DNA of 32,000 nt from Fibrobacter succinogenes subsp. succinogenes S85 (GCF_000146505.1 NC_017448.1:1560001-1592000); one strand, 5' to 3'. Shown: positions 9,263 through 31,289, counted from the first letter of the stretch. Translations and numbers: made by a program. The notes: generated from the sequence alone by a model not told the origin.

Positions 9263-9398
9263 GGGTTTTAAAATAAATTTTTACAATACAGAAGTCAATA
9301 TTTGTATTATACGGGAAAAGCATTTTCAAGTTATAAAAGAGATATTTTTCCAAGAAAACAAGCTTTCAAAATCTATATAATACACCTTGTATAATAGA

Positions 9399-16242: not shown

Positions 16243-16248
16243 AATTAC

Positions 16249-16269
16249 ACCTCCATTAAGTTTGGAGGT
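16249..16269 (-). promoter_or_regulatory. Shine-Dalgarno-sequestering hairpin in the 5' UTR of the Rpn-like gene
   Basis: mRNA reads ACCUCCA-AACUUAA-UGGAGGU-GUAAUU-AUG. This is a perfect 7-bp stem whose 3' arm is the GGAGG SD. Confidence 0.5.
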
Positions 16270-16305
16270 TCTAATCTACAATAGAGAATTTTCAAAAAGC
16301 GAAAC

Positions 16306-16336
16306 TTTGCAAATTTTGCAAACAACCGTTTGCAAA
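16306..16336. promoter_or_regulatory. Three copies of the palindromic octamer TTTGCAAA upstream of the Rpn-like gene
   Basis: Copies at 16306-16313, 16315-16322 and 16329-16336, which is 64-94 nt upstream of the start codon. Confidence 0.35.
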
Positions 16337-16580
16337 ATCGTTTATTTTGTCAACTATGGATTTCAACACTTCACTAGCAAAAAATACAAAGCCTCCCCAA
16401 AATTGGCCCAAAATACAAGAATCTATTCAATTTTTCTGATTTTTCCAGAGCCACATCATTTGCAAAGCCGCATAAAATAAGGTATATTCAAAAGCAGGTC
16501 TTATAGGGGCTCTTTTTGAGCGGAGTTAACACAAAGGAAGCGGTCCCTACGCCTTAACTTTGTCGCCCCCAAAATGTATT

Positions 16581-17606
16581 TCAGTTTCCAGACTGCATTT
16601 CGAGCAAGTCTGCAATGAGGGAAGCGTCGTTCGGGAAATATTTTAAAGCGACATTCAGGAGGCGCACGGATTCCTCGTCGCGTTTTTGCGCGTGGGCATC
16701 GTAGGCCATATTCTTGAAGCCAAAGACGGCTTCAGCATTCCCGTTTTTGGCGACAAGCTCGTAGGCATATTCGGCGCGATCATAGAACTTTGCATCGTAC
16801 GCAAGGTTTCCCATGAAGATAGCGGCATCAGAGAAATCAGGCTTGATTTGCAAAATGTTATTTAAGATTTCCATGGCGATGTAGGGCTTTTTATCTTCGG
16901 CGAGGACATCGGCAAGCTTGTACATAATTTGCGTGTCGTCGATTTTCACGCTGAGGGCTTCGCGGTAGGCGTTGGCGCTTTCTTCGAAATTCTTGTTCAG
17001 GCGGTATACGTCACCGAGGTAGACTAGGAAATCGGATTCTTCGGGATGGAGCGTGTAGCCTTCGCGAATTACGGCAACGGCTCGGTCAAAGTCGTTCAGA
17101 GCAATGTTTGCCTCGGAGAGCTGGTAAACGATGCTGATGTCATTTTTGTCGAGGCGGTAAGCATTTTCGATGGCGCGGAGGGCTCCGACTTTGTCGCCGG
17201 TTTTGGTGTAGGCTTCGCCGAGGTAAAGCCAGCCGGAAATGTTATCGGGGTCGAGTTTGAGCGCACGGTGGTAAACGGCAATGCATTCCGGGAACTGCTT
17301 TAAGCGGAAGTAGACGCTCGCCATATTGAAAAGTGCGGGTGCAAAATTGCCTTCGGAATAGTCCACAGCCTTGCGGTAGGCGGCGGCAGCTTCGGGATAT
17401 TTGTCCATTTGATAATAGCTATTGGCAATGTTGAAACTCACGGCAACGGGATCGGCGCCGCGGTCTTCGGCCTTGCGGTACAAGAGGATAGCTTGCTTGA
17501 ATTTCCCACTGCGATAAAGGGCGTTTGCGCGTTCCATCAAGTCAAAAGACGATTGCGCCGCAAACGACGACATTACAAAAAGCAAAACAAGAAAAAGCGG
17601 TTTCAT
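16581..17606 (-). CDS. Tetratricopeptide-repeat protein (TtpD-like last gene of a TonB2-type cluster)
   Basis: Signal peptide MKPLFLVLLFVMSSFAAQS followed by about eight TPR units (e.g. AILLYRKAEDRGADP, AAAAYRKAVDY, AVYHRALKLDPDN). It starts 1 nt after the tonB stop. Confidence 0.8.
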   Translation of the reverse strand: MKPLFLVLLFVMSSFAAQSSFDLMERANALYRSGKFKQAILLYRKAEDRGADPVAVSFNIANSYYQMDKYPEAAAAYRKAVDYSEGNFAPALFNMASVYFRLKQFPECIAVYHRALKLDPDNISGWLYLGEAYTKTGDKVGALRAIENAYRLDKNDISIVYQLSEANIALNDFDRAVAVIREGYTLHPEESDFLVYLGDVYRLNKNFEESANAYREALSVKIDDTQIMYKLADVLAEDKKPYIAMEILNNILQIKPDFSDAAIFMGNLAYDAKFYDRAEYAYELVAKNGNAEAVFGFKNMAYDAHAQKRDEESVRLLNVALKYFPNDASLIADLLEMQSGN

Positions 17607-17607
17607 A

Positions 17608-18252
17608 CTAGTCTCTAAACTTCACTTCGAAAGGTTGTTCCATGCCACAGAAAGCAACGGCTTTGCCATCTTTTTCAGCGGGAGCAAAAGTCATACGAGC
17701 AATAGCATCCTTCCCCGCTTGCGCAAGTCCAGAGCCTGCGGGAGATTCTTCGATGACTTTGATATCATACGCGCGTCCGCCAACATCCACACAGAAACTG
17801 AGACGAAGCATGGCATCTATTTCGCGGTCACGGATTTGCGGCGGCACCTGGAAATTCGGCATGGAGCGGTTTTCCGGCTTTTTATCGACATCGCCTTTTT
17901 CAGTGGAGAGCGCGCCGCCTCGAAAATCGGCAACGAGCTCGCTATTGATGGCAGCACCCGCAGTTCCTGAAACGGCGCCAAGAGCCATGGCAAAACGCGG
18001 TCCCGCTTTGGGCGAGCGCGAATTGGACTTTTGGCGGTTTGGCTTGCGTGCCGTGCGTTTTTTCTCAATTTTCTTTTCAACTTCTTCAACTTTTTTCACG
18101 GAGACTTCGGTCTTGATGAATTTCTTTTCGTGGAAGATTTTACCCGTCAAGAACAAGTTCGCCATCGTCACGGAGAATACGAGAACCATGCTCGCGAGAA
18201 TCGCCGCGAGAAGGATTGAAAAACGCTTTAATAATTTCTTAACAAGTTTCAT
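17608..18252 (-). CDS. tonB: TonB-family energy transducer
   Basis: Start at MKLVKKLLKRFSILLAAILASMVLVF (TM anchor). A Lys/Pro-rich linker follows, then a TonB_C-like C-terminus (LRLSFCVDVGGRAYDIKVIEESP...). The longer ORF-track start would overlap exbD. Confidence 0.8.
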   Translation of the reverse strand: MKLVKKLLKRFSILLAAILASMVLVFSVTMANLFLTGKIFHEKKFIKTEVSVKKVEEVEKKIEKKRTARKPNRQKSNSRSPKAGPRFAMALGAVSGTAGAAINSELVADFRGGALSTEKGDVDKKPENRSMPNFQVPPQIRDREIDAMLRLSFCVDVGGRAYDIKVIEESPAGSGLAQAGKDAIARMTFAPAEKDGKAVAFCGMEQPFEVKFRD

Positions 18253-18265
18253 CTTTCGTCTATGA

Positions 18266-18670
18266 TTATTCTGCTTGGGCGGCGATGGAGACTTTTTTGA
18301 CGCCGGCCAAATTGCACATATCGATGACCTGAACGAGAACGCCAGTTTCGGATTCCTTGTCGGCAATCACGACGGCTTCGCGGTCAGGCGCTTTGGCGAG
18401 AGACTGTTTCAAGATGTCTTGCAGGCTCGCCAAATCCACCTGGCGTTCATTCATGTGAATCGTCCCTTCACGCGTGATGGCTATGAGCAAGTTTTCTTTT
18501 TCAAGTTGGCTCGCCGATTGCGCCTGCGGTTTCGTCACATCCACACCCGTTTCGCGAGTGAACGACGACGTCACCACAAAAAAGATGAGCAAGATGAACA
18601 CGATATCCATCAGCGGACCCATTTCAATGCCCACGTCTTTCTGTTTTCTTCTCGGTAAATTAAATTCCAT
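18266..18670 (-). CDS. exbD: ExbD/TolR-family biopolymer transport protein
   Basis: 134 aa with the motif GPLMDIVFILLIFFVVTS and a periplasmic domain. Confidence 0.9.
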   Translation of the reverse strand: MEFNLPRRKQKDVGIEMGPLMDIVFILLIFFVVTSSFTRETGVDVTKPQAQSASQLEKENLLIAITREGTIHMNERQVDLASLQDILKQSLAKAPDREAVVIADKESETGVLVQVIDMCNLAGVKKVSIAAQAE

Positions 18671-18682
18671 AACAAATCCTTT

Positions 18683-18713
18683 AGATTGCTTCGCCTACGG
18701 CTCGCAATGACGT
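18683..18713 (-). repeat. 31-nt hairpin-ATGAC repeat, GCAAT type (copy 1)
   Basis: AGATTGC-N11-CTCGCAATGACGT. Both arms are identical to the copy at 19414-19444. It supplies the last six codons and the stop of exbB. Confidence 0.75.
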
Positions 18714-19399
18714 TGTCCAGCTCGGGTTGCAAAATAGTTGTCGATTACCGTTGCGCCAAGTTCCATTTCCTGCTTCAAGATTTCAATGCGTTCGTCCAAA
18801 CGCTGTTTCATAAGAGTCAGCGGGAACGCAATCAAGAGCCCGCTCTGCGTCGAAATCAAGGCTTCTGAAATTCCATCCGCCATCAGCACCGGGTTCTGGT
18901 TTCCGTACAACGTGATTACCTCAAAAGTCGAGACCATCCCCGTAACCGTTCCAAGCAGGCCCAAGAGCGGCGCGGCTGCAGCCATCACAGAAACAATGTG
19001 GTTTCCTTGTTCCATGTAGCGCACACTTTTCATCATGCGTACTTGCATGTAGTCGCGAAATTCGTCATAATTTTTTTGCGCAATTTCAATCGCGTAAGAA
19101 AGTTCTCTCGAAAGGAATCCACCGCGTTTGCGAAGGTTTGTCAAAGTCGTCTGCACACGCTGTTCATCAGAGGAAGATTCGGTTCCAACAACAGCTCTTT
19201 CGCCGGTCAAGCCGCGCTGCATACGCCTCACGACTTTAGTGATATCCTTTCTGAAAAAATCGCTACCGATGCGAAACCAACTCGAGAAAAGGAAATAGAA
19301 TCCAACAACGCCCGACAAGAGGATGGGTAGCATCACCACGCCACCCGCCTCATACGTATTCCGCAGAGATTCTATGAATATGTAATGAAAATCAGTCAT
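18695..19399 (-). CDS. exbB: MotA/TolQ/ExbB proton-channel protein
   Basis: 234 aa with three TM segments and the conserved AAAAPLLGLLGTVTGM and ISEALISTQSGLLIAFP blocks. Confidence 0.9.
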   Translation of the reverse strand: MTDFHYIFIESLRNTYEAGGVVMLPILLSGVVGFYFLFSSWFRIGSDFFRKDITKVVRRMQRGLTGERAVVGTESSSDEQRVQTTLTNLRKRGGFLSRELSYAIEIAQKNYDEFRDYMQVRMMKSVRYMEQGNHIVSVMAAAAPLLGLLGTVTGMVSTFEVITLYGNQNPVLMADGISEALISTQSGLLIAFPLTLMKQRLDERIEILKQEMELGATVIDNYFATRAGQRHCEP

Positions 19400-19413
19400 A
19401 ATTCATTCAGATG

Positions 19414-19444
19414 AGATTGCCGCGTTTTCAACTCGCAATGACGT
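19414..19444 (-). repeat. 31-nt hairpin-ATGAC repeat, GCAAT type (copy 2)
   Basis: AGATTGC-cgcgttttcaa-CTCGCAATGACGT, lying 3 nt after the TtpC-like stop and 14 nt before the exbB start. Confidence 0.75.
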
Positions 19445-19447
19445 ATT

Positions 19448-21055
19448 TTACTTACTTTCCTTTCCAAAGACTTTATTCATAAGCGAAGTACTTTGCACGT
19501 AGAGTTCGCTGGTAATTTTTTCAATCTTTTCGCTCAGGAGCCCATGCAAAATCATCACAGGGATTGCAATGACCAAGCCCATTTCAGTCGTGACAAGAGC
19601 TTCAGAAATACCGCCTGCAAGCACGCGAGCATCATTCGTCCCGACTTCGGTAATGACAGTAAAGAGCGTAATGATACCCGTCACCGTTCCAAGCAAACCC
19701 AGAAGCGGAGCAATCGTACCCATCGCCGCCAGAAGGCCCATGCGGCGTTCAAGTTTCGGCTGTTCACGGAGCAAAGCTTCTTGCAAGGAGCGTTCCGCAT
19801 TTTCACGCGTGTCGTTTACCTTGTTAAGCACGGCAAAAAGCACCATTGCAAGACTCGTCTCTTTCTTGAGGCAGAGATTGGCGGCTTCTTCGTACTTTTT
19901 CTCAGCGACAAGCGCATCCATTTTCTTGGTGAAGCGACGGCCGAGATGACCACGGTAAGAAAGCATCACGAAACGTTCTAGGAACAAGAGGAGCGCAATG
20001 ATCGCCACAAGCGAAAGCGGATACATCACGATACCGCCCTTCTTGAAGAACACCTTGAATTCTTCGGTCCAAGTGAGTTCCTTTGCATCGGTGATAGAAT
20101 TTTTGATGGCCTTGTTCTGCAGTACATCAAGCGGAATTGCGATAGTAGCCTGCGCGTCCGTTGCAGCACTTGCCACCGAGCCCGCCTGGTTCACGGCAGA
20201 CTTGATATTTGCAGCCATTTCCGTGGGCAGATTTGCATTCCATTCAAAGACCTTGCCCTGCAAAGCACCAGAGCGCAATAGCGCCTGCACATCACCATTG
20301 TCGTTTGCCACTTCGCCGAGGAACACCGTTCCCAAGCGCAAACGATTCACGTTCACATCCGGGCGCGTACCGACCTGCGAAAGTTCAGCACCATAAGACT
20401 GCGTGTAAGTGACTTCGTGACGGGCAAGCAAATCTGCCATATAGCCCTGCACCGCAGCAATCGTATTCGGCACATTCTTTTCGGCTTCAGCACTGGCGCG
20501 TTTCAAGTTCAAAAGGCGCTTGTTCATCCCGACCGGATAATCGCCCGCTACATCGCCAAGAGTCTTTTCAATGGAAAGCTTCACTTGCGTGTTGAGCGCA
20601 TCAAATGCAATTTCTTCGCTCTTGGACTTTTCTTCCGCTTCTTCAGTGACATTTTTGTTTGCCATCACTTCTTCGGTGACGCGGCCAAGATCTGTTGAGA
20701 GTTTGGAATAGCGACCGTCCAGTTCACGCGTTTTATTCTGATGTTCTTCGGTCAACTGCGATTCGGCATAGCGATTGCTCCAATGCTTGGCATCGAGCTT
20801 TTCAAGGGAATCGGCTTTTTGCATGCGGATGCGGGTAAGCGTTTCGACTTCGCGCTGCAAATTGCGCACTTCGATTTGCAACAAGGAATCCTTGATACGG
20901 GCTTCGTCTTCGGCGCTCTTCTTGTCGCTCGACCATGGCCATGCAAAAGCAGAAGAGGCGAGCATTAAGACAATTGCAAAAAACTTCACTAAATCCTTCG
21001 ACTTCGCACTATGTGCTCCGCTCAGGATGACACCATTTCTTTCGTCTAAAATCAT
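19448..21055 (-). CDS. Large MotA/TolQ/ExbB-family protein with long periplasmic N-terminal extension (TtpC-like)
   Basis: 535 aa: signal/TM, a ~330-aa coiled-coil-rich N-domain, then an ExbB-like module (MGTIAPLLGLLGTVTGI; ISEALVTTEMGLVIAIP). The ATGA start overlaps the upstream stop. Confidence 0.85.
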   Translation of the reverse strand: MILDERNGVILSGAHSAKSKDLVKFFAIVLMLASSAFAWPWSSDKKSAEDEARIKDSLLQIEVRNLQREVETLTRIRMQKADSLEKLDAKHWSNRYAESQLTEEHQNKTRELDGRYSKLSTDLGRVTEEVMANKNVTEEAEEKSKSEEIAFDALNTQVKLSIEKTLGDVAGDYPVGMNKRLLNLKRASAEAEKNVPNTIAAVQGYMADLLARHEVTYTQSYGAELSQVGTRPDVNVNRLRLGTVFLGEVANDNGDVQALLRSGALQGKVFEWNANLPTEMAANIKSAVNQAGSVASAATDAQATIAIPLDVLQNKAIKNSITDAKELTWTEEFKVFFKKGGIVMYPLSLVAIIALLLFLERFVMLSYRGHLGRRFTKKMDALVAEKKYEEAANLCLKKETSLAMVLFAVLNKVNDTRENAERSLQEALLREQPKLERRMGLLAAMGTIAPLLGLLGTVTGIITLFTVITEVGTNDARVLAGGISEALVTTEMGLVIAIPVMILHGLLSEKIEKITSELYVQSTSLMNKVFGKESK

Positions 21056-21888
21056 CTCACGCCTCCCACAACAGACAAACTTACAGGCAATTTTACAATC
21101 TGAGGTGGCTTTTTAGCCTGCTTCACATCGATGGCAAGTTTCACAGCGGCGCGTTCCTCAAGATTCAATTCTTCGTTCCATTCATAAACAATCTTATCGT
21201 TTTCCAGCTTACGTTCCAGGCGACCGTAAGAGGCTCCGTTTTCATCAACATAGACCATCCACTGGTTCCCTATGCGGAGAATTGTCGCATTCACAATTTC
21301 GCCATTTTTGCGAGTGAGCGGGCTGTTGACCACAGAAACTTCATCGCCAAACTTGATTTCTTCATTCACGAGCGACTTCATGCGAGAAAATGCTTCTTCT
21401 TCGGTCACGTTTCCGCTTTCGATTTCACGCGTCAAAGATTTTGCACGATCAAGGCGCTTGTCGCGTTCCCACGGGAGCGTCTGCGCAATTTGGACTTCGA
21501 GCTGTTTACAGATTTTGGCAAGTTCACCGCGCAATGCACGGCGTTTTGCGGCCACGTTATCGCTCTTGTTCTTCGCGCGGGCCTGCTTGTTGCGCTCCTG
21601 CTGGAGGCTTGATGCCACCTTGCGAATTTTGGCATTCAGGCTATCAATTTCCAGATTACGGCGTTCCACATCCGCCTTGTAGCGCTGTTCAAGCAACTGG
21701 CGGTGGGACACATCGGCACGTAGCATCGAATCCGTCGACGCGATTCGAGTATTCAAATTTTGAATTTCAGAATTCAGCTTTTCCTTCTGCAATTTCAGGT
21801 CGCGAATTTCGGACTCGTAGTCTGCAAAAGCTAGGCCCGAAAGCGAGAAAACAAGGACCGCAAAAGGCAATATATTCAATCGTTTCAT
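21052..21888 (-). CDS. DUF3450-family periplasmic coiled-coil protein (TtpB-like)
   Basis: 278 aa with a signal peptide, a long coiled coil and a C-terminal globular part (ATILRIGNQWMVYVDENGASYG...YEWNEE) as I recall for DUF3450. It occupies first position of a TonB2-type gene order. Confidence 0.7.
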   Translation of the reverse strand: MKRLNILPFAVLVFSLSGLAFADYESEIRDLKLQKEKLNSEIQNLNTRIASTDSMLRADVSHRQLLEQRYKADVERRNLEIDSLNAKIRKVASSLQQERNKQARAKNKSDNVAAKRRALRGELAKICKQLEVQIAQTLPWERDKRLDRAKSLTREIESGNVTEEEAFSRMKSLVNEEIKFGDEVSVVNSPLTRKNGEIVNATILRIGNQWMVYVDENGASYGRLERKLENDKIVYEWNEELNLEERAAVKLAIDVKQAKKPPQIVKLPVSLSVVGGVR

Positions 21889-21924
21889 AACTATTCCAAA
21901 TAGGTTGTCTCTAAATTACATTAT

Positions 21925-21955
21925 TTAAACACCTGGACCCACCAAAAGTGTCACC
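21925..21955 (-). promoter_or_regulatory. 31-nt bipartite motif, copy C (upstream of the TonB2-type operon)
   Basis: Minus strand reads GGTGACACTTTTGGTGGGTCCAGGTGTTTAA. The motif ends 36 nt before the ATG at 21888. An A/T-rich tract lies upstream. Confidence 0.45.
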
Positions 21956-21980
21956 GTGTTTGATAAAAAAAATTCAAGAA

Positions 21981-23732
21981 TTACTGACATTCTACACGAC
22001 CATCCTTAACTTCACACCAGTTTTTACACATCGAAATACTGAATGAAGAATCAAAATTTACCGTAACCATTTCATTATAATAATCATCGCACACTTTTTC
22101 CACTTCGCGATGCAAAACATTTGATTTCAAATTCTGGAGATAATAGCGGCTCACAAAAGCCGAACGACACTGTTCGTAATCCTTCAAATTCCAACCGCGG
22201 TCAGCACACCAAAGCCACAGATATTCCTTACAATAATTCCTTTCAGGATCTTCCAAGCAGTCCTGTTTTAGCGCAGAACAATCTGCAATATGGTTGTTTT
22301 TAAAATTGTTCGCCACGCAATAGCGTTTTAATCCGTCTGCATACGCATTCGCCTTATCCGCAGCATCGATAGAATCCGGCAGGAACTGCGACCATTTCGT
22401 TGTATCAAGCATCATCGCCGCCTTAACATGCGAAGCATAGCACGCCTTAACATTTTTGTTATAAACGGAATCTCTATAAACTTCGGTCGCATATTCGTTT
22501 AGCCCTTCCAAATCGCCCGCTTGCCACAAGTAATCCGGCCCTGAAACTCCTGCACAAGCAATATCCTGGTAAAGGCGGCACCCCCTGGAATCCCAACTGT
22601 CGGCATTATCGCCTTTTGTATCCGTGCAATTAGAGGCCGCGATATGACCATAACCAACACCTTCACCATCAACATTGACATAAATCGTTGTTTTCGCCAT
22701 TCCGCTAAACACACCCATTCCATTTTCAATATTCGATTCAGGAATAAATCGCGAATCCGAAACAGATTGTTTTACCTTATCCACATAATCAACATAAGAT
22801 TCATCTGTCGCATAGAGGTCTACAGAAATTTCACCAATAGGGAGCATCATATTCATCAGATAAAGCGTATCAAGAGTTTTGTTCCCTGCGACCGCGCGAT
22901 TTGATGAAAAACCAAGATTTTGTTGTTTTTCCAAAGGATCGTGCATCGCAATTCCGCGATACCCCTCTTCATCGGCATCAGTCATTCCCTTGAACATCCG
23001 GTTCATCGTAGTATTTTGCGACTCACCATTTTCAATACCGTAATTCATGATGGACAGCACTCCACGCACAGAATTATCATAGTCTAGCGCAACTTTAACA
23101 AACTCCATATCCATCGGATATTCTAGGAATTGAACATAAAACAGGTTGTTTGAATTCCGATTTTCTGTCCACACATAATCACCATTTTGTCGGGGTACAT
23201 TCATTCCCTTAACTTGAACTTTATTCGGAATAGTTGCAATAGCCTTATAGGTAGATTTTGCAACATGGCCAGCGCTATCCCATTTAAAATAAGCTTTCAG
23301 TTCATAGGATTCGCCCGTAATTCCGTAAAACATGTAAGGTGTATAAAAACAATTCGGGTTTGATGATTTGGGTTCCAGAATTGCAATTGTATCCTGTTTT
23401 TCGAAATCTCGACCAATTGTAAATCGTCCACGAACAGTCACATCAGCGCTATCATAGAAAGCGAAATTCTGTGATGAAGTTTCATCAAGCTGATAGACTT
23501 TTGAAAAACAGACATAAGGGTTTCCGTTTGCCATCACGTAACCATACGTATAAATACCCGTATAGACATCACGCTCTTCAGGATAGTATTCCCACGGTCC
23601 ATGAAAATCACAAGCCGCAAAATAAACAGACGAGAGAATCCAGACGAGAGACGAGAGGAATCGCCTACAAGATTCTTTGACTAAGTTCTTTCGTCTTTCG
23701 TCTTTCGTCTTTTGTCTAGAAATAGTATTCAT
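21981..23732 (-). CDS. Lipoprotein, N-terminal part DUF4249-like, with a ~220-aa Cys-rich C-terminal extension
   Basis: Lipobox VYFAAC. The ATG at 23732 overlaps the receptor stop by 17 nt. Residues ~45-355 end in SNIENGMGVFSGM, which I recall as DUF4249-like. Residues ~360-583 contain 14 Cys. Confidence 0.7.
   Translation of the reverse strand: MNTISRQKTKDERRKNLVKESCRRFLSSLVWILSSVYFAACDFHGPWEYYPEERDVYTGIYTYGYVMANGNPYVCFSKVYQLDETSSQNFAFYDSADVTVRGRFTIGRDFEKQDTIAILEPKSSNPNCFYTPYMFYGITGESYELKAYFKWDSAGHVAKSTYKAIATIPNKVQVKGMNVPRQNGDYVWTENRNSNNLFYVQFLEYPMDMEFVKVALDYDNSVRGVLSIMNYGIENGESQNTTMNRMFKGMTDADEEGYRGIAMHDPLEKQQNLGFSSNRAVAGNKTLDTLYLMNMMLPIGEISVDLYATDESYVDYVDKVKQSVSDSRFIPESNIENGMGVFSGMAKTTIYVNVDGEGVGYGHIAASNCTDTKGDNADSWDSRGCRLYQDIACAGVSGPDYLWQAGDLEGLNEYATEVYRDSVYNKNVKACYASHVKAAMMLDTTKWSQFLPDSIDAADKANAYADGLKRYCVANNFKNNHIADCSALKQDCLEDPERNYCKEYLWLWCADRGWNLKDYEQCRSAFVSRYYLQNLKSNVLHREVEKVCDDYYNEMVTVNFDSSFSISMCKNWCEVKDGRVECQ
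23628..23717. repeat. Purine-rich AGACGAGAGA repeats plus inverted TCTTTCG heptamer repeats spanning the first ~35 codons of the lipoprotein gene
   Basis: AGACGAGAGA at 23628-23637 and AGACGAGAGACGAGAGG at 23642-23658. A run tctttcgtctttcgtctttcgtcttttgtct at 23688-23717 is their imperfect reverse complement. Confidence 0.7.
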
Positions 23733-26178
23733 AATTCAGCATAATCGGTAAAAAGGGGAACTGAGTAATTTCTGTTTTCTTCGGAGGATTCTTGCGCGTA
23801 TCGTAGAAAGTAAAGAACATGTTATCGTGATTCGTCAAGTTGATAATTGTCCAGCTAAAGTTCCACTTGCCTTCACGACCCATATCAATCGCCTTCAAGT
23901 CAATTCTGAAATAATCCGTTTGGCGGCCTGCATTGCGGCTTCCCGGCAACACCACAATATCATCTGAATATCGTTGCGTACCGATTTCCTGCTGCAGATA
24001 ATACCCTTTGTACTCACTAATCGGCATACCCGATGAATACTTGAGTGCAAGCGACGAGCGGAAATAGCGCCCCTTTTTCTTATGTTGCCACAAGGCGTCT
24101 TCACCACCTTTCCAGTTGATGCCCAAATCCATCTTCAGAGCATACGGTTGATGCCAACTCGGGAAATACGGCTTGGAACCATCATTAGCGCGTGCAACAC
24201 TTATACTCTGGCTCCAGTTGATTCCACCAAACCACCAGCCTTTATCTTTACGCAGAGAAAGTTCATAGCCAAACGAATAGCCATCTGCCGTACCGAAATT
24301 ATCCGCCAGCACTAATTTTTTTGAAGACGATTCATCACTACTGTCCTGTTTCATCGCAAACGTATTCAAGTTATTTTGAGTTTTATAGTAAACGCCTGCC
24401 GTAAAGTCGTAGCCTTCAAAAAGATCACGGTGGCTATATTCCGCGGCAAAGAGCCATGACGAAGCGGGTTTAACGTGACGTCCATCCGTTGTTGTCGTTG
24501 CAGGATAATAGAATTCATTGAGCGTTTCCTGATCGGTATAGACAATTGAATTCAAATACTGCAAATAGTAACCACCATAAAGTTCTAGCGATTTCGTATC
24601 ATCAAGATTAACAGTCAACGAGGCACGAGGTTCTACACCAAAATGTTGTGATGCGGTCTGGTAATTGAAGCGCAAGCCATATTGCAGCAAGTAATCCGGT
24701 GAAATTTTCCACGCATCTTGTGCATAGGCGACATGATGGAAAGTCTCTTCATTATCAGCCACGGAAATTGACGCCATCTTTTCTTGATAACGTTCGTTAT
24801 CGTATTCCAATTCGTAGCCAAAGGTAAACGTATGATTATCAATACCACGATAATTCAGCCACTGTTTGCCAGCAAATGTGTAAAGCAGCATTTCAATTGA
24901 CATGAGATCGCTTACTTTCATCAACTGGTAAAACTTGCTGTAAGCAAATGTCGAATTGTAATCCCAGTTGCCATCGATGCGGTGGTAAATGCCAAGCGGA
25001 ATGGCTATGTTACCCCAGTCCATATAAAGCGGGTCAAATTCCAGGCGGTCCTTGCCGATGTAGAAACTGAACTTGAGGCGCGTATCTTTGGAGAGATCAT
25101 ACATAAATGTTCCCTGCAAGTCCGTGAATTCATAATCTAGATCCAAATCTAGGAGGCCAATGGCATTGCACAAGTCCAGAATGTAGCCGATGTAAGTTGT
25201 ACGACCCGCAAACACCCAGCGGGCAGGCCCCTTATGACCTTCGGTATGGAGCTGTGCCGCAAACGTACTGATTTTGATGCTCGACTTGCTAAACCATTCT
25301 TCGACAGAATCCTGACCGCCCGCACGGCCTTCCATCTTGAGCACAGAACTTAAACGGTTGCCGTACTGCGCCGGGAATCCGCTCTTATAGAACTGCACAT
25401 CGTCAATACCTTCGACGAGGAACGTGCTAAAAAGCCCAAAGAAATGCACCGGAGAATAGACAACGGCGTTATCGAACAAGAAGAGATTCTGGTCGGCAGC
25501 ACCACCGCGCACGTAAATCTTGGAACTGAAATCGGAACTGGCGACAACGCCCGGGAGCGCCTGAATGCTCTTGATGACATCGGCTTCGGCAAGGCCCGGC
25601 ATGCGCTTGATGGACTTTGCGGAAACGACGGATTCACCCGGCTTGCGCTTTGGACGGCGGCGCAACTGCACCACGACTTTTTTGAGTTCGGTCACTTTGG
25701 AATTCGCGCTACCCGAAGCGAGAAGTTTTTCCACATCGACATCGGATGTGCTATCGGAGTTTGCCGCGCCTTCGGCAGAGTCTACAGGATCCTTCGACTC
25801 CGCTTGCGCGGAGTTTATCACGGACTCCGTTCCGGAACCAACCTCGTCAACAGTGACTGCGTCGGGGCCAAGCGTTTTGCTGAACGTGCTATCGTTACCG
25901 AAATACAGGAGTTCATAGCATTTTTCCTTCTCGGCACCAGAAGTATCGGAGTTCGTCACACAAATGTTCCAAAGCGTATCGGCAGGGAGGACAACGCTAA
26001 AAGGCGTCCCCACGGTCGTCTGCAAAGCTTCGCCCGTTTCGAGAATTTCGACATTTAGCTTTTCGTGAGCTTCAAACGAGTCATCCTGAACAATTCCATT
26101 GAAGATAATACGTTCGTGGGCTGCGGCAAACGCAACCATCAACGACACAAAAACAACAATTTTCAACATAAAACTCAT
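23716..26178 (-). CDS. TonB-dependent receptor with CarboxypepD_reg-like N-terminal domain
   Basis: Signal peptide MSFMLKIVVFVSLMVAFAAA from the ATG at 26178 (AGGA RBS). A plug domain is present (SIKRMPGLAEADVIKSIQALPGVV..IYVRGGAADQNLFLFDNAVVY). A long beta-barrel ends in aromatic ...LNYEYYF. No FecA-type N-terminal signalling (STN) domain is recognisable. Confidence 0.9.
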   Translation of the reverse strand: MSFMLKIVVFVSLMVAFAAAHERIIFNGIVQDDSFEAHEKLNVEILETGEALQTTVGTPFSVVLPADTLWNICVTNSDTSGAEKEKCYELLYFGNDSTFSKTLGPDAVTVDEVGSGTESVINSAQAESKDPVDSAEGAANSDSTSDVDVEKLLASGSANSKVTELKKVVVQLRRRPKRKPGESVVSAKSIKRMPGLAEADVIKSIQALPGVVASSDFSSKIYVRGGAADQNLFLFDNAVVYSPVHFFGLFSTFLVEGIDDVQFYKSGFPAQYGNRLSSVLKMEGRAGGQDSVEEWFSKSSIKISTFAAQLHTEGHKGPARWVFAGRTTYIGYILDLCNAIGLLDLDLDYEFTDLQGTFMYDLSKDTRLKFSFYIGKDRLEFDPLYMDWGNIAIPLGIYHRIDGNWDYNSTFAYSKFYQLMKVSDLMSIEMLLYTFAGKQWLNYRGIDNHTFTFGYELEYDNERYQEKMASISVADNEETFHHVAYAQDAWKISPDYLLQYGLRFNYQTASQHFGVEPRASLTVNLDDTKSLELYGGYYLQYLNSIVYTDQETLNEFYYPATTTTDGRHVKPASSWLFAAEYSHRDLFEGYDFTAGVYYKTQNNLNTFAMKQDSSDESSSKKLVLADNFGTADGYSFGYELSLRKDKGWWFGGINWSQSISVARANDGSKPYFPSWHQPYALKMDLGINWKGGEDALWQHKKKGRYFRSSLALKYSSGMPISEYKGYYLQQEIGTQRYSDDIVVLPGSRNAGRQTDYFRIDLKAIDMGREGKWNFSWTIINLTNHDNMFFTFYDTRKNPPKKTEITQFPFLPIMLNYEYYF

Positions 26179-26202
26179 TACAGTTCCTAAACCTTTCCCC
26201 AA

Positions 26203-26233
26203 TGGAACACCTCAAGGTACAAAAAGTGTTACC
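26203..26233 (-). promoter_or_regulatory. 31-nt bipartite motif, copy A (upstream of the TonB-dependent receptor)
   Basis: Minus strand reads GGTAACACTTTTTGTACCTTGAGGTGTTCCA. The motif ends 24 nt before the ATG at 26178. An A/T-rich tract lies upstream. Confidence 0.45.
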
Positions 26234-26292
26234 ACATAATTCAAAAAATTTAAAAATTTATAGTAAACTCAAAATTTTTCATACAAAAGGAG

Positions 26293-26317
26293 ATCCCCGA
26301 ACAAGTCGGGGATGACA
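26293..26317 (-). repeat. Hairpin-ATGAC repeat, CCCG type
   Basis: atccccga-acaag-tcggggat followed by gaca. The stem is a perfect 8 bp. Confidence 0.7.
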
Positions 26318-26340
26318 AGAGCATATAGGAGATGCCCGCT

Positions 26341-26377
26341 CGTCCCCATCAAGCGAGGACAGGCATCGGGGATGACA
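26341..26377 (-). repeat. Hairpin-ATGAC repeat, degenerate copy with ~12-nt loop insertion
   Basis: gtccccatcaag...catcggggatgaca, ending 6 nt from the caspase-gene stop codon. Confidence 0.55.
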
Positions 26378-26383
26378 AAGTAA

Positions 26384-28657
26384 CTAGAATCGTCCGATGG
26401 TAAGGCCTGCGTAGAATCCCGGCCACCAGCGACCTTTATGGCTATTACAGCTTACGTCGTCGTGGTAATCGCCAAGCGGTTTAAGCAATAGCTTGTTCAG
26501 ATAGCCTTCGCTCGTCAAATTCAACGAGCCACCCACCGAGAGGCCAAAACCCGGGAACACCTGGTACACATAACCAACGCGGCCGCGATGGTGGTATCCA
26601 GACTTCCAATCATCTTCGTCCACTCCAAATTTATCGTAGACGTTGAAGAACGTGTATTCCAGTTCCCAATGGCTTCCGTATTTTCCGAACTGGGTACCGA
26701 TACCAACACCGTGTTCATAGAACTTTTCGAATTCCTTAAAGATATGCCCTTTCTTGAAGAATGCGGCCCATTCAATATTCGTGTAGAAATAAGCCGTACC
26801 CAAATGAACTGATCCACCAAGTGCACCCATTTCGTTGATGTATGGCGTCACGCTCCACACGCCGTTACCAACGATATTGACAAGGCCCACCGGAGACTTT
26901 TCGCAATGAGCGCAGATATTGACAATACCCCACTGGCGACCCTTTTCCTTTGTCGCATAGTTGACAACACCAATTTGCACCTTTTCGTTAACGTGAGAAG
27001 CATTTACCCCCGCAGCCACCTGAACTTTCGACTTTGTCGCATAATTGACACCAGCAACCGCTTGGCTTTTTGTAGTTTGTGCAACATTCACACCAGCCGT
27101 CACCTGCCAATCTGTAACCTTCGCATAGTTGACACCCGCAGAGACCTGCAAACCATTAAGCGAATCAACGGCCACGTTCACGATACCAATCTGCGCACCC
27201 GAGGACTTGTCCTTCGCAATGTTCACAACCGAGCTCACCTGCGCACCATCAAAAGACCCTGCATAGTTTGCCACAGACGAAAGCTGAGCGCCTTCAAAGT
27301 GGTCTTTTGCCACGTTCACAATCGTTGTCGCCTGCAAGCCGTGCATTTCCTTTTGAGCAATATTTGCAAACAAGCTCACCTGCGTACCCAACATGTAATC
27401 CTTCGTACGAGCGACGAACAAGCCCAACTGCAAGCCCTTACGCGGATCGCTATCCGTATCCACGAAGTTAAACGTCGTACGGAACTTACCGTTATGATCC
27501 AAAGAATCAAGCGAACATGCAATCGTATCGCCGCCCGGGCAACTTCTATTGCCGCCAATTTCACCACGGAACACCGTCTGTTCAGCCATAACACTCTTGA
27601 AGTTGCCCATCGAAATCTTTTCGCGCTTGCCGTTCACAAGAGCAACAGTTGCGCCCATGTAATCGGTTTTCTGCTGGAGATTCACCGTGTAATTCCCTGC
27701 CGGGAGGCCAAGGCTCATCGCATGACCTTGCTTTTTATTGAGTTCCGCCACGAGTTCGCCATCGGCATCGCGAATGTAAAGTCGACCGCCAACGCTTTCG
27801 TCCAAATCGAGGCCTGCGCTTGTCGCACGCAAATCGGTCATCACCACGTCACCCGTACCCGCAAGGTTCATATCACGGCTCGGATGCTGTGCGCCACCCA
27901 GCGTCGTTTCCGTCTTTTGCAATGTTTCATTGAACGCGAACTGGTACGCTTCCGAGAGCGTCACACGGCCATCGCTACTCAAGTCGCCTGCGCCACGGAG
28001 ACCGCTCACAAGCGAGTGCGTAAAGAACGAGCCCTTGAGTTTATCGCTTTCCTGGCTAGATTCATCTTGCGTACTGCTCGTGATAAACGCATAGCCCTTC
28101 ATGTCGCTGCTCTGATCGACCATAAAAGCAGGCACCGCCTTACCACCTTTCACGCGGGTAATTGCACCAGAACCGCAAGCATCAATCACAGCAATTTTCA
28201 CATCGGCACTGAGCGCGTCAATGCGATTACGCAAGTCCTTCCAGGCGTAAGTTTCTTCGCCCAGGCGGAGGCCCTTTTCGTCGGCGTGACCACTGTAATA
28301 GACAAGCACTTCGTCACGACCGTTAGACGCCTTGTCCTGCAAAATTTTTGCATCGAGATTCGCAAATTCCTTTTGCAAAGCAACAACAGAAGGCTCCTTC
28401 ACGAGAATCACGTTCTGCGGGAGCACGCCACCCATTTCCTTAAGCACCTTGGCAAACGAACGGGCATCACTTTCCGCATAGCGAAGCATCGGACGGCCTG
28501 CACCACCGTTATTGGCACTCACGGCCACTACGTAGCGATTGATACGGCCCGATTCTGTTGCAGCATCGGCATTAGAAGCCAAAAAGAGCAAAACAAAAAG
28601 AAATGCAAAAGACAAACCAGACAACACCCCAAAAGCCTTATTCGAAATCATAAACAT
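26384..28657 (-). CDS. Caspase-family (peptidase C14) protein with short-repeat region and outer-membrane beta-barrel-like C-terminus
   Basis: 757 aa with a signal peptide. The caspase fold shows a His-Cys dyad context (VLVYYSGHADE; KIAVIDACGSGA). About 12 tandem ~15-aa repeats G-x-Q-x(3-4)-V-N-x-A span residues 408-598. The C-terminus ends ...FYAGLTIGRF, with the terminal Phe typical of OMPs. Confidence 0.85.
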   Translation of the reverse strand: MFMISNKAFGVLSGLSFAFLFVLLFLASNADAATESGRINRYVVAVSANNGGAGRPMLRYAESDARSFAKVLKEMGGVLPQNVILVKEPSVVALQKEFANLDAKILQDKASNGRDEVLVYYSGHADEKGLRLGEETYAWKDLRNRIDALSADVKIAVIDACGSGAITRVKGGKAVPAFMVDQSSDMKGYAFITSSTQDESSQESDKLKGSFFTHSLVSGLRGAGDLSSDGRVTLSEAYQFAFNETLQKTETTLGGAQHPSRDMNLAGTGDVVMTDLRATSAGLDLDESVGGRLYIRDADGELVAELNKKQGHAMSLGLPAGNYTVNLQQKTDYMGATVALVNGKREKISMGNFKSVMAEQTVFRGEIGGNRSCPGGDTIACSLDSLDHNGKFRTTFNFVDTDSDPRKGLQLGLFVARTKDYMLGTQVSLFANIAQKEMHGLQATTIVNVAKDHFEGAQLSSVANYAGSFDGAQVSSVVNIAKDKSSGAQIGIVNVAVDSLNGLQVSAGVNYAKVTDWQVTAGVNVAQTTKSQAVAGVNYATKSKVQVAAGVNASHVNEKVQIGVVNYATKEKGRQWGIVNICAHCEKSPVGLVNIVGNGVWSVTPYINEMGALGGSVHLGTAYFYTNIEWAAFFKKGHIFKEFEKFYEHGVGIGTQFGKYGSHWELEYTFFNVYDKFGVDEDDWKSGYHHRGRVGYVYQVFPGFGLSVGGSLNLTSEGYLNKLLLKPLGDYHDDVSCNSHKGRWWPGFYAGLTIGRF

Positions 28658-29457
28658 TATTTACCCGCCTTCTTGAGAGTAAAACCAATCACCTTCACGT
28701 CGCTTCTCTTAAGCAACTTATCGACATCATTTTCTTCAACCGCAAACTCCTTGGGAGAAGTCACGAAGAAGAATTTTTCAAAGTACGGAGCATCGTCAAG
28801 CTTGTACGCAAACGGGAGCGAATTCATCTTGCCCGGAGCAAGTTCAATCGCCTTCACGCCATCGCCCATGTGGAGAGTCAGAGCGCCATTGCCGTCCATG
28901 CTAAAAAGGAGTCCAAAGCATTTTTCAGGAACGGCATAGCGCAACTGGATTTCATCGCCTTCGCCGACAGAATCAAGATCGTTCAGCTGGACAATCCCGG
29001 CAGGAGTCTTTTTCCATACTTCCATGCGGGCGTCAAGTCCCTTGATTCGCGTATCAGACTGGGTTTCGGCAAGAGCAACCTGCGTGTTTTGCGAACCATT
29101 GACTGTTGCAACATCGCCACCCACGCGTTCATTCATCACGGAAGTTTCGCGCTGGGCAAAGAACGCCACCAACGCAATCGCAAAAACGAACATCGCCGCA
29201 GCCGCAAATTTCACGAGCGTAAAGCGCACCGCATTTTTCGCAGCAATTTTCGCGGCATTCCCGGCGGCACCCGTTCCAAGATTCGCGGCAAGCGTTTCAA
29301 ACGGCAACTTGCTCAAAATTGCCTTGTTGTCTTCGCGGAGCATTTTTACACGATTTGCAAATACCGCATCATTCGCTTCAAGCTCGCGAAGCTTATTCAT
29401 TTCTTCTTCCGGCAAATCGCCAGTCAGGAATCGTTCTAATTTCCAATCGGGAATCAT
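28657..29457 (-). CDS. Anti-sigma factor: single-pass membrane protein with DUF4384-like periplasmic domain
   Basis: The N-terminus (DWKLERFLTGDLPEEEMNKLRELE) is anti-sigma-like but lacks a zinc-finger Cys/His motif. The TM segment is FAAAAMFVFAIALVAFFA. The periplasmic part (GEGDEIQLRYAVPEKCFGLLFSMDGNG) resembles DUF4384. ATG 29457 overlaps the sigma stop, with an alternative GTG at 29460. The stop overlaps the caspase ATG (TAATG). Confidence 0.75.
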   Translation of the reverse strand: MIPDWKLERFLTGDLPEEEMNKLRELEANDAVFANRVKMLREDNKAILSKLPFETLAANLGTGAAGNAAKIAAKNAVRFTLVKFAAAAMFVFAIALVAFFAQRETSVMNERVGGDVATVNGSQNTQVALAETQSDTRIKGLDARMEVWKKTPAGIVQLNDLDSVGEGDEIQLRYAVPEKCFGLLFSMDGNGALTLHMGDGVKAIELAPGKMNSLPFAYKLDDAPYFEKFFFVTSPKEFAVEENDVDKLLKRSDVKVIGFTLKKAGK

Positions 29458-29960
29458 CACTGAACCTCCAGAGTTTTAACTTTGGCCTGTAACCCGCGCA
29501 AACGCTTGCGCACACCGCTTACCGAGAGCCCCACTTCACGGGCAGTCTCTTCGAGAGTCATACCATCGACAAAATGGAGGACTGCCATTGTGCGGCTAGA
29601 TTCGGGTTCCTTCAAAAAGAGCTTTGCCAGCACATTTTTCGTTTCGTAATCGTCATGCTCGTCTTCGGCACAGGCGATGCTCAAAAGCAGGCTAGAAGAA
29701 TCTACGTCAAGTCCACGACGGCGCTTATCGCGAATGCGGTTGAGGCAAAGTCTCGTTGCCGTATTCCACAAAAGGCTGCTCGGCGACTCCATATCCAGGC
29801 GTTCCGATGCAGAATAAATCCGCAAAAAAACGTCTTGCATGAGGTCGCTAGCTTCAGCATCATCGCGAAGGAGTTGCAGGCAGCGCCTATAGACCATAGG
29901 CGCGTACTTCTCGTAAATCTTTGCAAATCCTGCTTTTTTTAAGGTTTCTAGGCTTTTCAC
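29457..29960 (-). CDS. ECF (sigma-70 family group 4) RNA polymerase sigma factor
   Basis: 167 aa. Region 2 is visible (DLMQDVFLRIY; WNTATRLCLNRIRDKRR), as is the region 4 HTH (MTLEETAREVGLSVSGVRKRL). GTG is the only plausible start. Confidence 0.85.
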   Translation of the reverse strand: MKSLETLKKAGFAKIYEKYAPMVYRRCLQLLRDDAEASDLMQDVFLRIYSASERLDMESPSSLLWNTATRLCLNRIRDKRRRGLDVDSSSLLLSIACAEDEHDDYETKNVLAKLFLKEPESSRTMAVLHFVDGMTLEETAREVGLSVSGVRKRLRGLQAKVKTLEVQ

Positions 29961-29965
29961 GTTTA

Positions 29966-29996
29966 TGTAACACCGGAGGTATTCAAAAGTGTTACC
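29966..29996 (-). promoter_or_regulatory. 31-nt bipartite motif, copy B (upstream of the ECF sigma operon)
   Basis: Minus strand reads GGTAACACTTTTGAATACCTCCGGTGTTACA. The motif ends 5 nt before the GTG start. It is the best dyad of the three copies (GGTAACAC/GTGTTAC). An A/T-rich tract lies upstream. Confidence 0.45.
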
Positions 29997-30040
29997 TAAA
30001 AAATAAAAATTTTGAATTATTCTCTATAAATAAGAATTCG

Positions 30041-30087
30041 ATCCCGGCACAAGGCCGGGATGACAATGCAATGCGGCCGGGATGACA
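30041..30087 (-). repeat. Hairpin-ATGAC repeat (CCGG type) plus a duplicated right arm
   Basis: atcccggc-acaag-gccgggat-gaca at 30041-30065, then gccgggatgaca again at 30076-30087. It ends 3 nt from the nitroreductase stop. Confidence 0.7.
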
Positions 30088-30090
30088 GCG

Positions 30091-30801
30091 CTAAATCGTG
30101 TCTGAACTGCGCAAAGTTTGCATAGAACGGCGGAAAATTTCCTTGCCAGAGCCTATTTCAAAGAAATACTTGAAAATTCCAAGATCGACCTTGCTAAAAA
30201 AGCCCAAACGCTTCTCCGCAAAAACGCGGCCGCTCTCGTCAACGCTAAATTTAGCCTTGAACTGGTTCAAAGCCGACGGCGCAAGCATCACATAGTCGAT
30301 TCCCTTCTTGAACCAATCCGGAGATTGATCGTAATCCGGCGCGATTCGCGTCACAGGTTTCATCGGGTGCTGCACGCCCTGCGTCTCACCATTGCCAATC
30401 GCAATCACGAGCTCTAGCTTTTCGCCATCGTCAATTTCAATCGTCGGAGTCTTCTTGAACGTAAGCCCAACCACGCAAGTATTGAGCCCAATCATCTGCG
30501 CCAAAAGCACGATATCCGCCGTCGCATACCCCACGCGTTCATCAAGTGAAGCTTCGCACCCCGCCACTGACTTTTGACCCGCAATCGCAATGTAATTTTT
30601 CACATTCCGAAACGAGCCGTAATGCGCCAAGCGACCGCTAAATGCCACATCGTCATTTAAAACAAGCTGCATGTGGAGCGCAAAATTTTCATTCAACCGA
30701 CGAATCCGCGACTGCAATTCTTCGACTTGCTCCTTAGTCAAAGGCGTCGAAGCATACCTACGCACAGAATGTCGTGCTAAAACAGCCTCTTCAATAGTCA
30801 T
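30091..30801 (-). CDS. Nitroreductase-family protein
   Basis: 236 aa. The N-terminal ARHSVRRY motif and overall pattern are typical of the nitroreductase fold. An AAGGAG RBS is present. Confidence 0.8.
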   Translation of the reverse strand: MTIEEAVLARHSVRRYASTPLTKEQVEELQSRIRRLNENFALHMQLVLNDDVAFSGRLAHYGSFRNVKNYIAIAGQKSVAGCEASLDERVGYATADIVLLAQMIGLNTCVVGLTFKKTPTIEIDDGEKLELVIAIGNGETQGVQHPMKPVTRIAPDYDQSPDWFKKGIDYVMLAPSALNQFKAKFSVDESGRVFAEKRLGFFSKVDLGIFKYFFEIGSGKEIFRRSMQTLRSSDTI

Positions 30802-30851
30802 AAATTCTCCTTCTCAAAAGCTCCCAAGAATTACTATTCTAAACTACAATT

Positions 30852-31289
30852 TTACAGCTCAATTGTCTCGTCATCACTCTTGATAAAATCAATTAAGCGC
30901 TCCAACGTGAGGGCTGCCCCCATATTCCCCGCATCGGCAACACCTTCTACACGCAAGGAACACTCCCAGACAATCGCCACGCGATACCCCAAGAGCGAAA
31001 GTTCATGTTGCGTCTTAATGTCGCGCACTATGTTGCGGTCGAACTTGTCGTTCCAAAATGCAGAATTTGACTTCGGGCGACTCGTTAGCTTGCAACCATG
31101 CTGGTGCCAAAAACACCCGTTCACAAAAATCGCAACCCCATACTTTTGTACGAAAATATCCGGCGTCCCCGGCAAATCCCGACGGTGAAGCCGATAGCGG
31201 AACCCAGCCTCAAAGAGCGCCTTGCGCACAATCATCTCGGGCTTTGTATCCTCCGAATGGACCGCCTGCATCATCTGCGAGCGGGTCAT
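30852..31289 (-). CDS. vsr: Very-short-patch repair endonuclease
   Basis: TRSQMMQAVHSEDTKPE, LPGTPDIFVQKYGVAIFVNGCFWHQH and YRVAIVWEC match the Vsr family. The start is uncertain: ATG 31289, GTG 31358 (adds a Lys/Arg-rich tail) or ATG 31445 (would abut pepT). Confidence 0.8.
   Translation of the reverse strand: MTRSQMMQAVHSEDTKPEMIVRKALFEAGFRYRLHRRDLPGTPDIFVQKYGVAIFVNGCFWHQHGCKLTSRPKSNSAFWNDKFDRNIVRDIKTQHELSLLGYRVAIVWECSLRVEGVADAGNMGAALTLERLIDFIKSDDETIEL

Follow-up and report, generated by a model that had tools for sequence, protein, structure and literature searches.

A conserved promoter-like motif at the head of three neighbouring operons in Fibrobacter succinogenes S85 as the probable target of an ECF sigma factor encoded with a caspase homologue

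We analyzed a stretch of 32,000 nt from Fibrobacter succinogenes subsp. succinogenes S85 (NC_017448.1:1560001-1592000, found at about 1.13-1.15 Mb in CP001792.1, the whole of which is here referred to as the window), in which a 31-nt bipartite motif, GGTRACACTTTT-N10-GGTGTT, heads three consecutive operons. The first encodes a sigma factor of the extracytoplasmic function (ECF) type, a putative anti-sigma factor and a caspase-family protein, the second a TonB-dependent receptor, and the third a TonB2-type energiser. Judged from sequence comparison, the motif is very probably the promoter recognised by the ECF sigma factor encoded next to it, and it would thereby join the sigma factor, the caspase-like protein, the receptor and the dedicated TonB energiser in one small regulon that is found in several phyla. 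A preliminary description of the window had proposed an ECF promoter of this kind, with autoregulation of the sigma gene and co-regulation of the receptor and TonB2-type operons, and every comparative test that we ran supports such a reading.

With up to three mismatches allowed, the window has exactly three matches to the pattern, each of them on the minus strand, against an expectation of 0.05 per window; none of 100 dinucleotide-preserving shuffles gave three or more matches. The positions and sequences reported earlier for the three copies (Table 1) were all as given, and so were their distances of 24, 5 and 36 nt to the start codons of the receptor, sigma and DUF3450 genes, the receptor start being the ATG at 26178 of the public gene call. 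The absence of a fourth copy also held in a looser search (19 positions scored, at most five of them mismatched, with the spacer allowed to be 9-11 nt long), whose sole additional matches, at 15849 and 7624, lie inside the shuffle background of 0-8. Moreover, the A/T-rich tract described 5' of the motif is real and is also seen in 71 non-redundant related sites. The sigma-70-like site TTGACT-N17-TATTTT, cited at 9270-9298, is present there, and within the three motif-bearing gaps no sigma-70-like site was detected.

All three S85 sites have the geometry (A/G)AC-N16-GGT, which is kept upstream of the sigma orthologues both in Fibrobacter and in other phyla. SigW-type ECF promoters have the layout AAC-N16-CGT, as in TGAAAC-N16-CGTA of Bacillus subtilis SigW, and by this comparison (A/G)AC-N16-GGT is the same, classic ECF layout. 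Spacers of 16-18 bp are documented for ECF promoters (PMC7776599). The sequence elements of an autoregulated ECF-type promoter are all found here, namely an AAC-type -35, a fixed spacer of about 16-17 nt and a (C/G)GT-type -10, placed upstream of the sigma gene and conserved. We predict that region 4.2 of the sigma factor would read the -35 box GGT(A/G)ACAC and the T tract that follows, and region 2 the -10 box GGTGTTnnA. The copy before the sigma gene would drive the sigma, anti-sigma and caspase genes as one translationally coupled operon, which would amount to positive autoregulation; the second copy would drive the TonB-dependent receptor, which lacks an STN domain, together with DUF4249; and the third would drive the six genes of the energiser (DUF3450, large ExbB, ExbB, ExbD, TonB and TPR protein).

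The exact pattern was searched for in one genome per bacterial or archaeal species (185,579 species genomes, 596 Gb), and at least 120 loci were obtained, whose labels (L005, L100 and so on) are used below. About half of the loci among the matches listed belong to Fibrobacterota. Among these matches, all 67 Fibrobacterota copies stand just upstream of, and in the same orientation as, a gene from one of five classes: the sigma factor (32, and one more cut by a contig end), the receptor (15), DUF3450 (11), FMN_red/Flavodoxin_2 flavoproteins (6) and DUF4249 (2). The motif is thus confined to these classes in the listed Fibrobacterota matches, with no unrelated gene downstream. A generic Fibrobacter promoter or repeat element is ruled out by this distribution and by the fact that the 32-kb window contains no fourth copy.

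Four orthologous loci of Fibrobacter, retrieved through their sigma homologues (71-87% identity), keep the gene order, and before the sigma, receptor and DUF3450 genes they keep both boxes and the 10-nt spacing, with variation in the spacer sequence and the flanks. Operon heads of the scanned loci that had not themselves triggered the scan carry the motif as well, with 0-3 mismatches; upstream of internal genes (anti-sigma, caspase, large ExbB and most DUF4249 genes) the best matches have 5-9 mismatches, which is background. These non-triggering heads are the least biased of the sequence evidence that the motif marks operon starts, and together with the four loci they bear out the expected conservation at orthologous operon heads. 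In the matrix of 71 unique module-linked sites, position 31, which was not demanded by the scan, is A in 97%, positions 29-30 are weakly constrained, and A/T-rich sequence lies between -15 and -2. Every module-linked copy points toward its downstream gene, and by its site matrix the motif is directional and asymmetric.

The pairing of motif and sigma factor is not limited to Fibrobacterota. Among the matches listed, the motif lies directly upstream of the sigma gene at 46 sites, and at 14 loci outside Fibrobacterota the exact motif is followed directly by the sigma gene and then by anti-sigma and caspase homologues. These 14 loci come from Myxococcota/'Deltaproteobacteria', Spirochaetota, an Acidobacteriota metagenome-assembled genome (MAG) and unclassified MAGs. 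Outside Fibrobacterota, the motif also precedes TonB, ExbB/ExbD/TonB/receptor operons or a receptor (L019, L030, L100, L109, L114 and L127), and outer-membrane LA_2272-like proteins with homology to the caspase protein's C-terminal part (L021, L068, L075, L090 and L125). The remaining listed matches, about 36, come from unrelated taxa, are often intragenic and look like chance; for the entire 596-Gb collection, about 35 chance matches are estimated under uniform composition. The cross-phylum sigma factors are 43-49% identical to that of S85. Their region 4.2 segment (L/M)SVSGVRKRLR and region 2 segment ATxxCLNxxR are nearly invariant, which is what invariant -35 and -10 boxes would require.

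The position of the sigma start codon is also fixed. It stands 8 nt after GGTGTT in every Fibrobacter sigma site (in S85, GTG at 29960, with the interval from the -10 box spanning 29960-29974), and the same 8-nt gap is seen, for example, at L005 10004, L006 9965 and L007 9965. GTG is the start codon in S85 and in about 58% of sites. The residues right after it are conserved as protein across phyla, and in the S85 sigma gene there is no other in-frame start before those residues. Taken together, these features imply a sigma transcript that is leaderless or has a leader of at most about 3 nt, and we infer that the sigma mRNA is leaderless or nearly so in Fibrobacter.

Several points weigh against the promoter reading and should be considered together. 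In the site matrix, the core columns could not vary, since the scan demanded them, and the unbiased parts are the non-triggering operon-head sites, the flanks and position 31. For S85, the size given for the regulon is a lower bound, as it comes from the 32-kb window and the listed scan matches are from genomes other than S85 itself. A leaderless mRNA starting with GTG would be unusual by Escherichia coli standards. The anti-sigma factor is a putative one, assigned by position, topology and a sub-threshold domain match. Finally, the ACAC and GTGT arms of the motif can pair, and folded as RNA the 31-mers reach -7.4 to -9.5 kcal/mol, with z of -0.8 to -2.3, values that by themselves would allow a structural role.

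Instead of a promoter, the motif could be an operator for a dimeric repressor or activator, bound at the partial dyad GGTAACAC/GTGTTAC, with the real promoters in the A/T-rich upstream DNA. Its two arms, (A/G)ACAC and GTGTT, form an inverted repeat, the dyad reaches 7 bp in the sigma copy, and A/T-rich tracts do lie upstream. However, the outer right arm reads W-Y-A at positions 29-31 of the 71 unique sites, where a dyad needs A-C-C, and the invariant CTTTT and the G at position 23 have no mirror partner. All module-linked copies have the same orientation relative to the gene, no regulator other than the ECF sigma/anti-sigma pair accompanies the motif from phylum to phylum, and no sigma-70-like site was detected in the three gaps. 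A symmetric or palindromic operator does not agree with the site matrix, given A31 and the unmatched CTTTT. The dimeric repressor that had been put forward as an alternative is therefore disfavoured by the near-constant A31, the unmirrored CTTTT and the shared orientation of the copies, and an operator of any such kind seems to us improbable.

It could also be that the motif is the promoter of a different sigma factor, such as another ECF paralogue or a lineage-specific housekeeping variant, with the adjacent sigma gene being just one target. F. succinogenes encodes many sigma-70-family proteins, and our search for sigma homologues returned 5,238 relatives in total. But the motif travels with this very sigma/anti-sigma/caspase trio in at least four phyla, it directly precedes the sigma gene at the 46 listed sites mentioned above, and the DNA-reading helices of the orthologues hardly vary. 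A general promoter is excluded by the absence of unrelated genes behind the listed Fibrobacterota copies, and we give a different sigma factor very little chance. The least credible alternative is a hairpin of RNA or single-stranded DNA in the 5' leader, acting as an attenuator or translational control element: besides the pairing arms, the A/G at position 4 would pair with U28 either way, but no compensatory changes were seen, at two near-miss sites a stem pair is lost with nothing to make up for it (C8->G at the DUF3450 gene of L007 and A5->C at the receptor of L043), pairing leaves the invariant G1, G2, T9-T12 and A31 unexplained, the distance from motif to start ranges from 3 to 57 nt between gene classes, and Rfam 15 gave no match at E<=1 over 16000-31000 on both strands. 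With moderately stable folds, no compensatory changes and an empty Rfam search, an RNA hairpin or known RNA family was rejected.

The promoter of the adjacent ECF sigma factor is thus the reading that we retain. An ECF promoter at the heads of neighbouring operons is expected biology. What would go beyond it is that the promoter hardly varies between phyla, that a caspase homologue is a fixed partner, that the putative anti-sigma factors form a new family, that the regulon has a TonB2-type system of its own and that the sigma mRNA would be leaderless. The features of the three operons are compiled in Table 1.

Table 1. Predicted promoters, genes and terminator-like hairpin of the three operons, in window coordinates
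Feature	Coordinates	Strand	Remarks
Sigma operon promoter (predicted)	29966..29996	-	-35 box GGTAACACTTTT 29996-29985; -10 box GGTGTTACA 29974-29966
ECF sigma factor, 167 aa	29457..29960	-	Pfam Sigma70_r2, Sigma70_ECF, Sigma70_r4_2; NCBIfam sigma70-ECF
Putative single-pass anti-sigma factor, 267 aa	28657..29460	-	no Pfam family above threshold; 4-nt overlap with sigma gene
Caspase-family (Peptidase_C14) protein, 757 aa	26384..28657	-	1-nt overlap with anti-sigma gene
Terminator-like hairpin	26293..26313	-	ATCCCCGACTTGTTCGGGGAT then CTCCTTTTGT; 3' of caspase gene
Receptor operon promoter (predicted)	26203..26233	-	-35 box 26233-26222; -10 box GGTGTTCCA 26211-26203
TonB-dependent receptor, 820 aa	23716..26178	-	Plug domain; without STN domain
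DUF4249-like protein, 583 aa	21981..23732	-	17-nt overlap with receptor gene
TonB2-type operon promoter (predicted)	21925..21955	-	-35 box GGTGACACTTTT 21955-21944; -10 box GGTGTTTAA 21933-21925
DUF3450 protein (TtpB-like), energiser operon gene 1	21052..21888	-	Pfam
Large MotA/ExbB-family protein (TtpC-like), 535 aa	19448..21055	-	Pfam, NCBIfam
ExbB	18695..19399	-	Pfam
ExbD	18266..18670	-	Pfam
TonB (TonB_C domain)	17608..18366	-	listed start TTG; true start probably further downstream
TPR-repeat protein (TtpD-like), last energiser operon gene	16581..17606	-	NCBIfam

Inside each of the three units, neighbouring genes overlap or nearly abut. The gene identities suggested earlier (ECF sigma factor, C14 caspase, Plug receptor, DUF3450, two MotA/ExbB proteins, ExbD and TonB_C) were confirmed by Pfam and NCBIfam. 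The sigma protein matches Sigma70_r2 (8.8e-15), Sigma70_ECF (1.8e-07) and Sigma70_r4_2 (7.6e-06), all over the Pfam cut-offs, and TIGR02937 sigma70-ECF with 80 bits against a cut-off of 42.9; it contains regions 2 and 4 only, as is defining for the ECF (group 4) sigma-70 family, and among solved structures B. subtilis SigW (5wuq, E = 8.5e-13) is closest to it. Receptor matches are limited to Plug and a barrel family, and residues 1-193 have no Pfam match at E<=1. The view that it lacks a FecA-type signalling domain therefore stands at the domain level, with no STN found at E<=1. Also at the domain level, the six-gene layout of the energiser is the same as that of the Vibrio TonB2 system, in agreement with the type assigned to it before. 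Directly 3' of this operon, on the minus strand, there is a gene for an Rpn-family recombination-promoting nuclease or transposase-like protein (15334-16242), and the S85 gene 5' of the sigma gene encodes a TM1586-type nitroreductase (30091-30801) and has no motif.

The terminator-like hairpin stands between the caspase end of the sigma operon and the receptor promoter. It belongs to a repeated unit: TGTCATCCCSR occurs four times on the minus strand, at 26307-26317, 26367-26377, 30055-30065 and 30077-30087 (expected 0.05), and every copy runs into a GC-rich hairpin, e.g. 26313-26293 and 30061-30041. These units, which resemble repetitive extragenic palindromes or terminators, are located just 5' of the sigma and receptor promoters, and none is found before the DUF3450 promoter, so that transcription of the receptor operon could continue into the TonB2 operon.

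In other Fibrobacter species, the motif also heads FMN_red/Flavodoxin_2 genes with a CX2CX2CX5-7C motif (L007 9299-9330, L074 1335, L089, L101 4775, L029 485, L034 and L115 303). Some of these flavoproteins have about 200 aa and adjoin the sigma gene; others, with two domains and 400-431 aa, are encoded elsewhere in the genome. Such genes, similar to flavin mononucleotide (FMN) reductases and iron-sulfur flavoproteins, hint at a redox-linked or metal-linked role or trigger of the regulon. In ruminal_MAG_424 (L005 13807-15152), an insertion sequence with an rve integrase gene and a helix-turn-helix gene is inserted between the caspase and receptor genes, and the receptor promoter is intact 3' of it.

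Some arrangements outside Fibrobacterota are also worth describing. In Myxococcus sp. Y35 (L109 978-8000) and a Spirochaetes MAG (L100 2153-6236), energiser and receptor form one motif-headed operon, ExbB-ExbD-TonB-receptor. Because these operons are without the TtpB, TtpC and TtpD extras, the TonB2-type elaboration would be specific to the Fibrobacter lineage. In two Leptospirales MAGs (L021 1471-3770 and L125 190-2705), the motif heads an LA_2272-like outer-membrane protein, and after it come genes for another ECF sigma factor (26% identity), for an anti-sigma factor of the CxxC type and for efflux-like proteins, which could be a sigma cascade. A full Gram-negative module is carried by contigs labelled as a Bifidobacterium MAG (L061) and an Enterobacteriaceae MAG (L088), and L088 hardly differs from L026 and L071, which are Myxococcales loci; both contigs are probably mis-binned.

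Across phyla, the putative anti-sigma factor invariably accompanies the sigma gene. It consists of an N-terminal helical domain with the conserved helix motif PDxxLERxxLGELP, one transmembrane helix near residues 80-102, and a conserved DUF4384-like periplasmic domain. The family comprises 1,637 clusters at 50% identity (E<=1e-10), nearly all of 240-300 aa. The same periplasmic stretch matches DUF4384 (PF14326) in nine of 12 family members, at 14-15.5 bits and thus below the cut-off of 27, and the S85 protein itself has no DUF4384 match. In fact, the S85 protein had no match in Pfam or NCBIfam and none in a PDB profile search; FecR was not matched at E<=1 by it or by 11 cross-phylum homologues, and the Pfam search detected neither a zinc finger nor an RsiW/RseA family signature. 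Its AlphaFold model, built with near-identical homologues only, has a predicted local distance difference test (pLDDT) score of 43, with confident helices at residues 1-45 (pLDDT 74-91) and a long helix at 82-112.

The third gene of the sigma operon encodes a protein with a signal sequence, a Peptidase_C14 domain (PF00656, 6.7e-11), LA_2272-type repeats and a small C-terminal beta-barrel ending in Phe. His124 (YSGHA) and Cys161 (DACGSG) are invariant in 21 Fibrobacter homologues and present in the cross-phylum homologues, and by its C14 domain and catalytic His-Cys dyad the protein is a member of the caspase family. In the structural model, the N-terminal domain weakly matches caspase-3/7 and legumain (template modelling score of about 0.5, E 0.02-0.2), and the all-beta C-terminal region (pLDDT of about 80) has a weak likeness to the 8-stranded outer-membrane barrels NspA, Ail and OmpA. 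From the model, the protein appears to be anchored in the outer membrane, in which case the protease domain would face the periplasm.

These observations suggest how the regulon might be switched. At rest, the single-pass anti-sigma factor would keep the sigma factor at the inner membrane, and an envelope signal would inactivate the anti-sigma factor. Given the precedents of DdvA and craspase (see below) and the periplasmic topology implied by the barrel, we tentatively propose, as a possibility with the odds rather against it, that the caspase homologue acts on the anti-sigma factor by cleaving its periplasmic DUF4384-like domain or by sensing through it. Alternatively, the caspase homologue may simply be a product of the regulon.

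For a major cellulose degrader of the rumen, an ECF sigma factor that had not been characterised gains a predicted promoter and hence a testable regulon. As the pairing of promoter and sigma factor is near base-for-base across phyla, regulon members should be readable from sequence in many uncultured bacteria. Moreover, the constant association of the sigma factor with a new anti-sigma family and a caspase homologue is a tractable case for the roles of bacterial caspase homologues in the envelope. A receptor without STN and a TonB2-type system dedicated to the regulon would point to regulated substrate uptake, and the flavoprotein genes under the same promoter in some species hint at a trigger linked to redox state or metals. 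In the full-text literature on ECF with caspase and TonB, on Fibrobacter ECF and on Leptospira ECF regulons, we found no account of the sigma/anti-sigma/caspase/TonB module or of its promoter.

Among known systems, those of the SigW/RsiW and RpoE/RseA type share with the Fibrobacter module a sigma factor with regions 2 and 4 only, an AAC-type -35 followed by T's, a 16-nt gap, a (C/G)GT -10, a promoter copy upstream of the sigma factor's own gene and a single-pass membrane protein encoded immediately downstream. However, the Fibrobacter boxes GGTRACAC and GGTGTTnnA are different, its anti-sigma factor has no zinc finger or RsiW/RseA signature, a caspase-family protein is the fixed third gene, and the regulon is a transport and energising machine instead of a general envelope-stress set. 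FecIRA is likewise an autoregulated ECF system controlling a TonB-dependent receptor, but the Fibrobacter module has no STN domain on its receptor and no FecR-like protein, the two features that define FecIRA, and it includes a dedicated TonB system and a caspase-like protein; it may work like cell-surface signalling outside the FecIRA family.

As for the energiser, the Vibrio TonB2 operon has the order TtpB-TtpC-ExbB2-ExbD2-TonB2-TtpD, carries a Fur box and is iron-responsive (PMC6957404). The Fibrobacter operon at 21888-16581 follows the same order of DUF3450, large MotA/ExbB, ExbB, ExbD, TonB and TPR proteins, a likeness of genes and domains, but it lies under a predicted ECF promoter instead of Fur and in another phylum. 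In the ECF classification 2.0, group ECF229 is described as 100% Spirochaetes (PMC7826278), and the main text of that paper mentions neither caspase nor Fibrobacter. Our Spirochaetota loci with motif-headed ExbB/ExbD/TonB operons (L100 and L114) agree with what is described for ECF229, whereas the family of the Fibrobacter sigma factor spans several phyla.

Two further systems couple caspase-like proteases to sigma factors. In Myxococcus xanthus, DdvS is an ECF sigma factor and DdvA an anti-sigma factor with a periplasmic TPR-CHAT caspase-like domain, and proteolysis is proposed as the first activation step (PMC11506125). The Fibrobacter module also couples an ECF sigma/anti-sigma pair to a caspase-fold protease domain that is predicted to be periplasmic, but the protease is a protein of its own, of the C14 and not the CHAT type, instead of a domain of the anti-sigma factor, and transport genes are the predicted targets rather than genes of CRISPR-Cas and of the antiphage signalling system based on cyclic oligonucleotides (CBASS). 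In craspase, which belongs to type III-E CRISPR, the caspase-like Csx29 cleaves Csx30, which binds RpoE, and some Csx30 proteins have a C-terminal DUF4384 domain, described as often fused to proteases (bioRxiv 10.1101/2022.08.17.504292). Both systems combine a caspase-like protease with an anti-sigma-like protein, and the Fibrobacter family has sub-threshold matches to DUF4384 in its periplasmic domain; craspase is cytoplasmic, RNA-triggered and part of CRISPR, whereas the Fibrobacter module is predicted to be located in the envelope. It is conceivable, though in our view less likely than not, that a widespread and hitherto undescribed envelope module exists in which a periplasmic caspase homologue, anchored in the outer membrane, serves as site-1 protease or sensor and acts on single-pass anti-sigma factors with a DUF4384-like domain; the ECF sigma factor, once released, would read a near-invariant promoter in Fibrobacterota, Myxococcota, Spirochaetota and other phyla and turn on a private TonB energiser with an STN-less receptor. 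If true, FecIRA cell-surface signalling would have a protease-gated counterpart, and craspase-Csx30-RpoE a parallel in the envelope.

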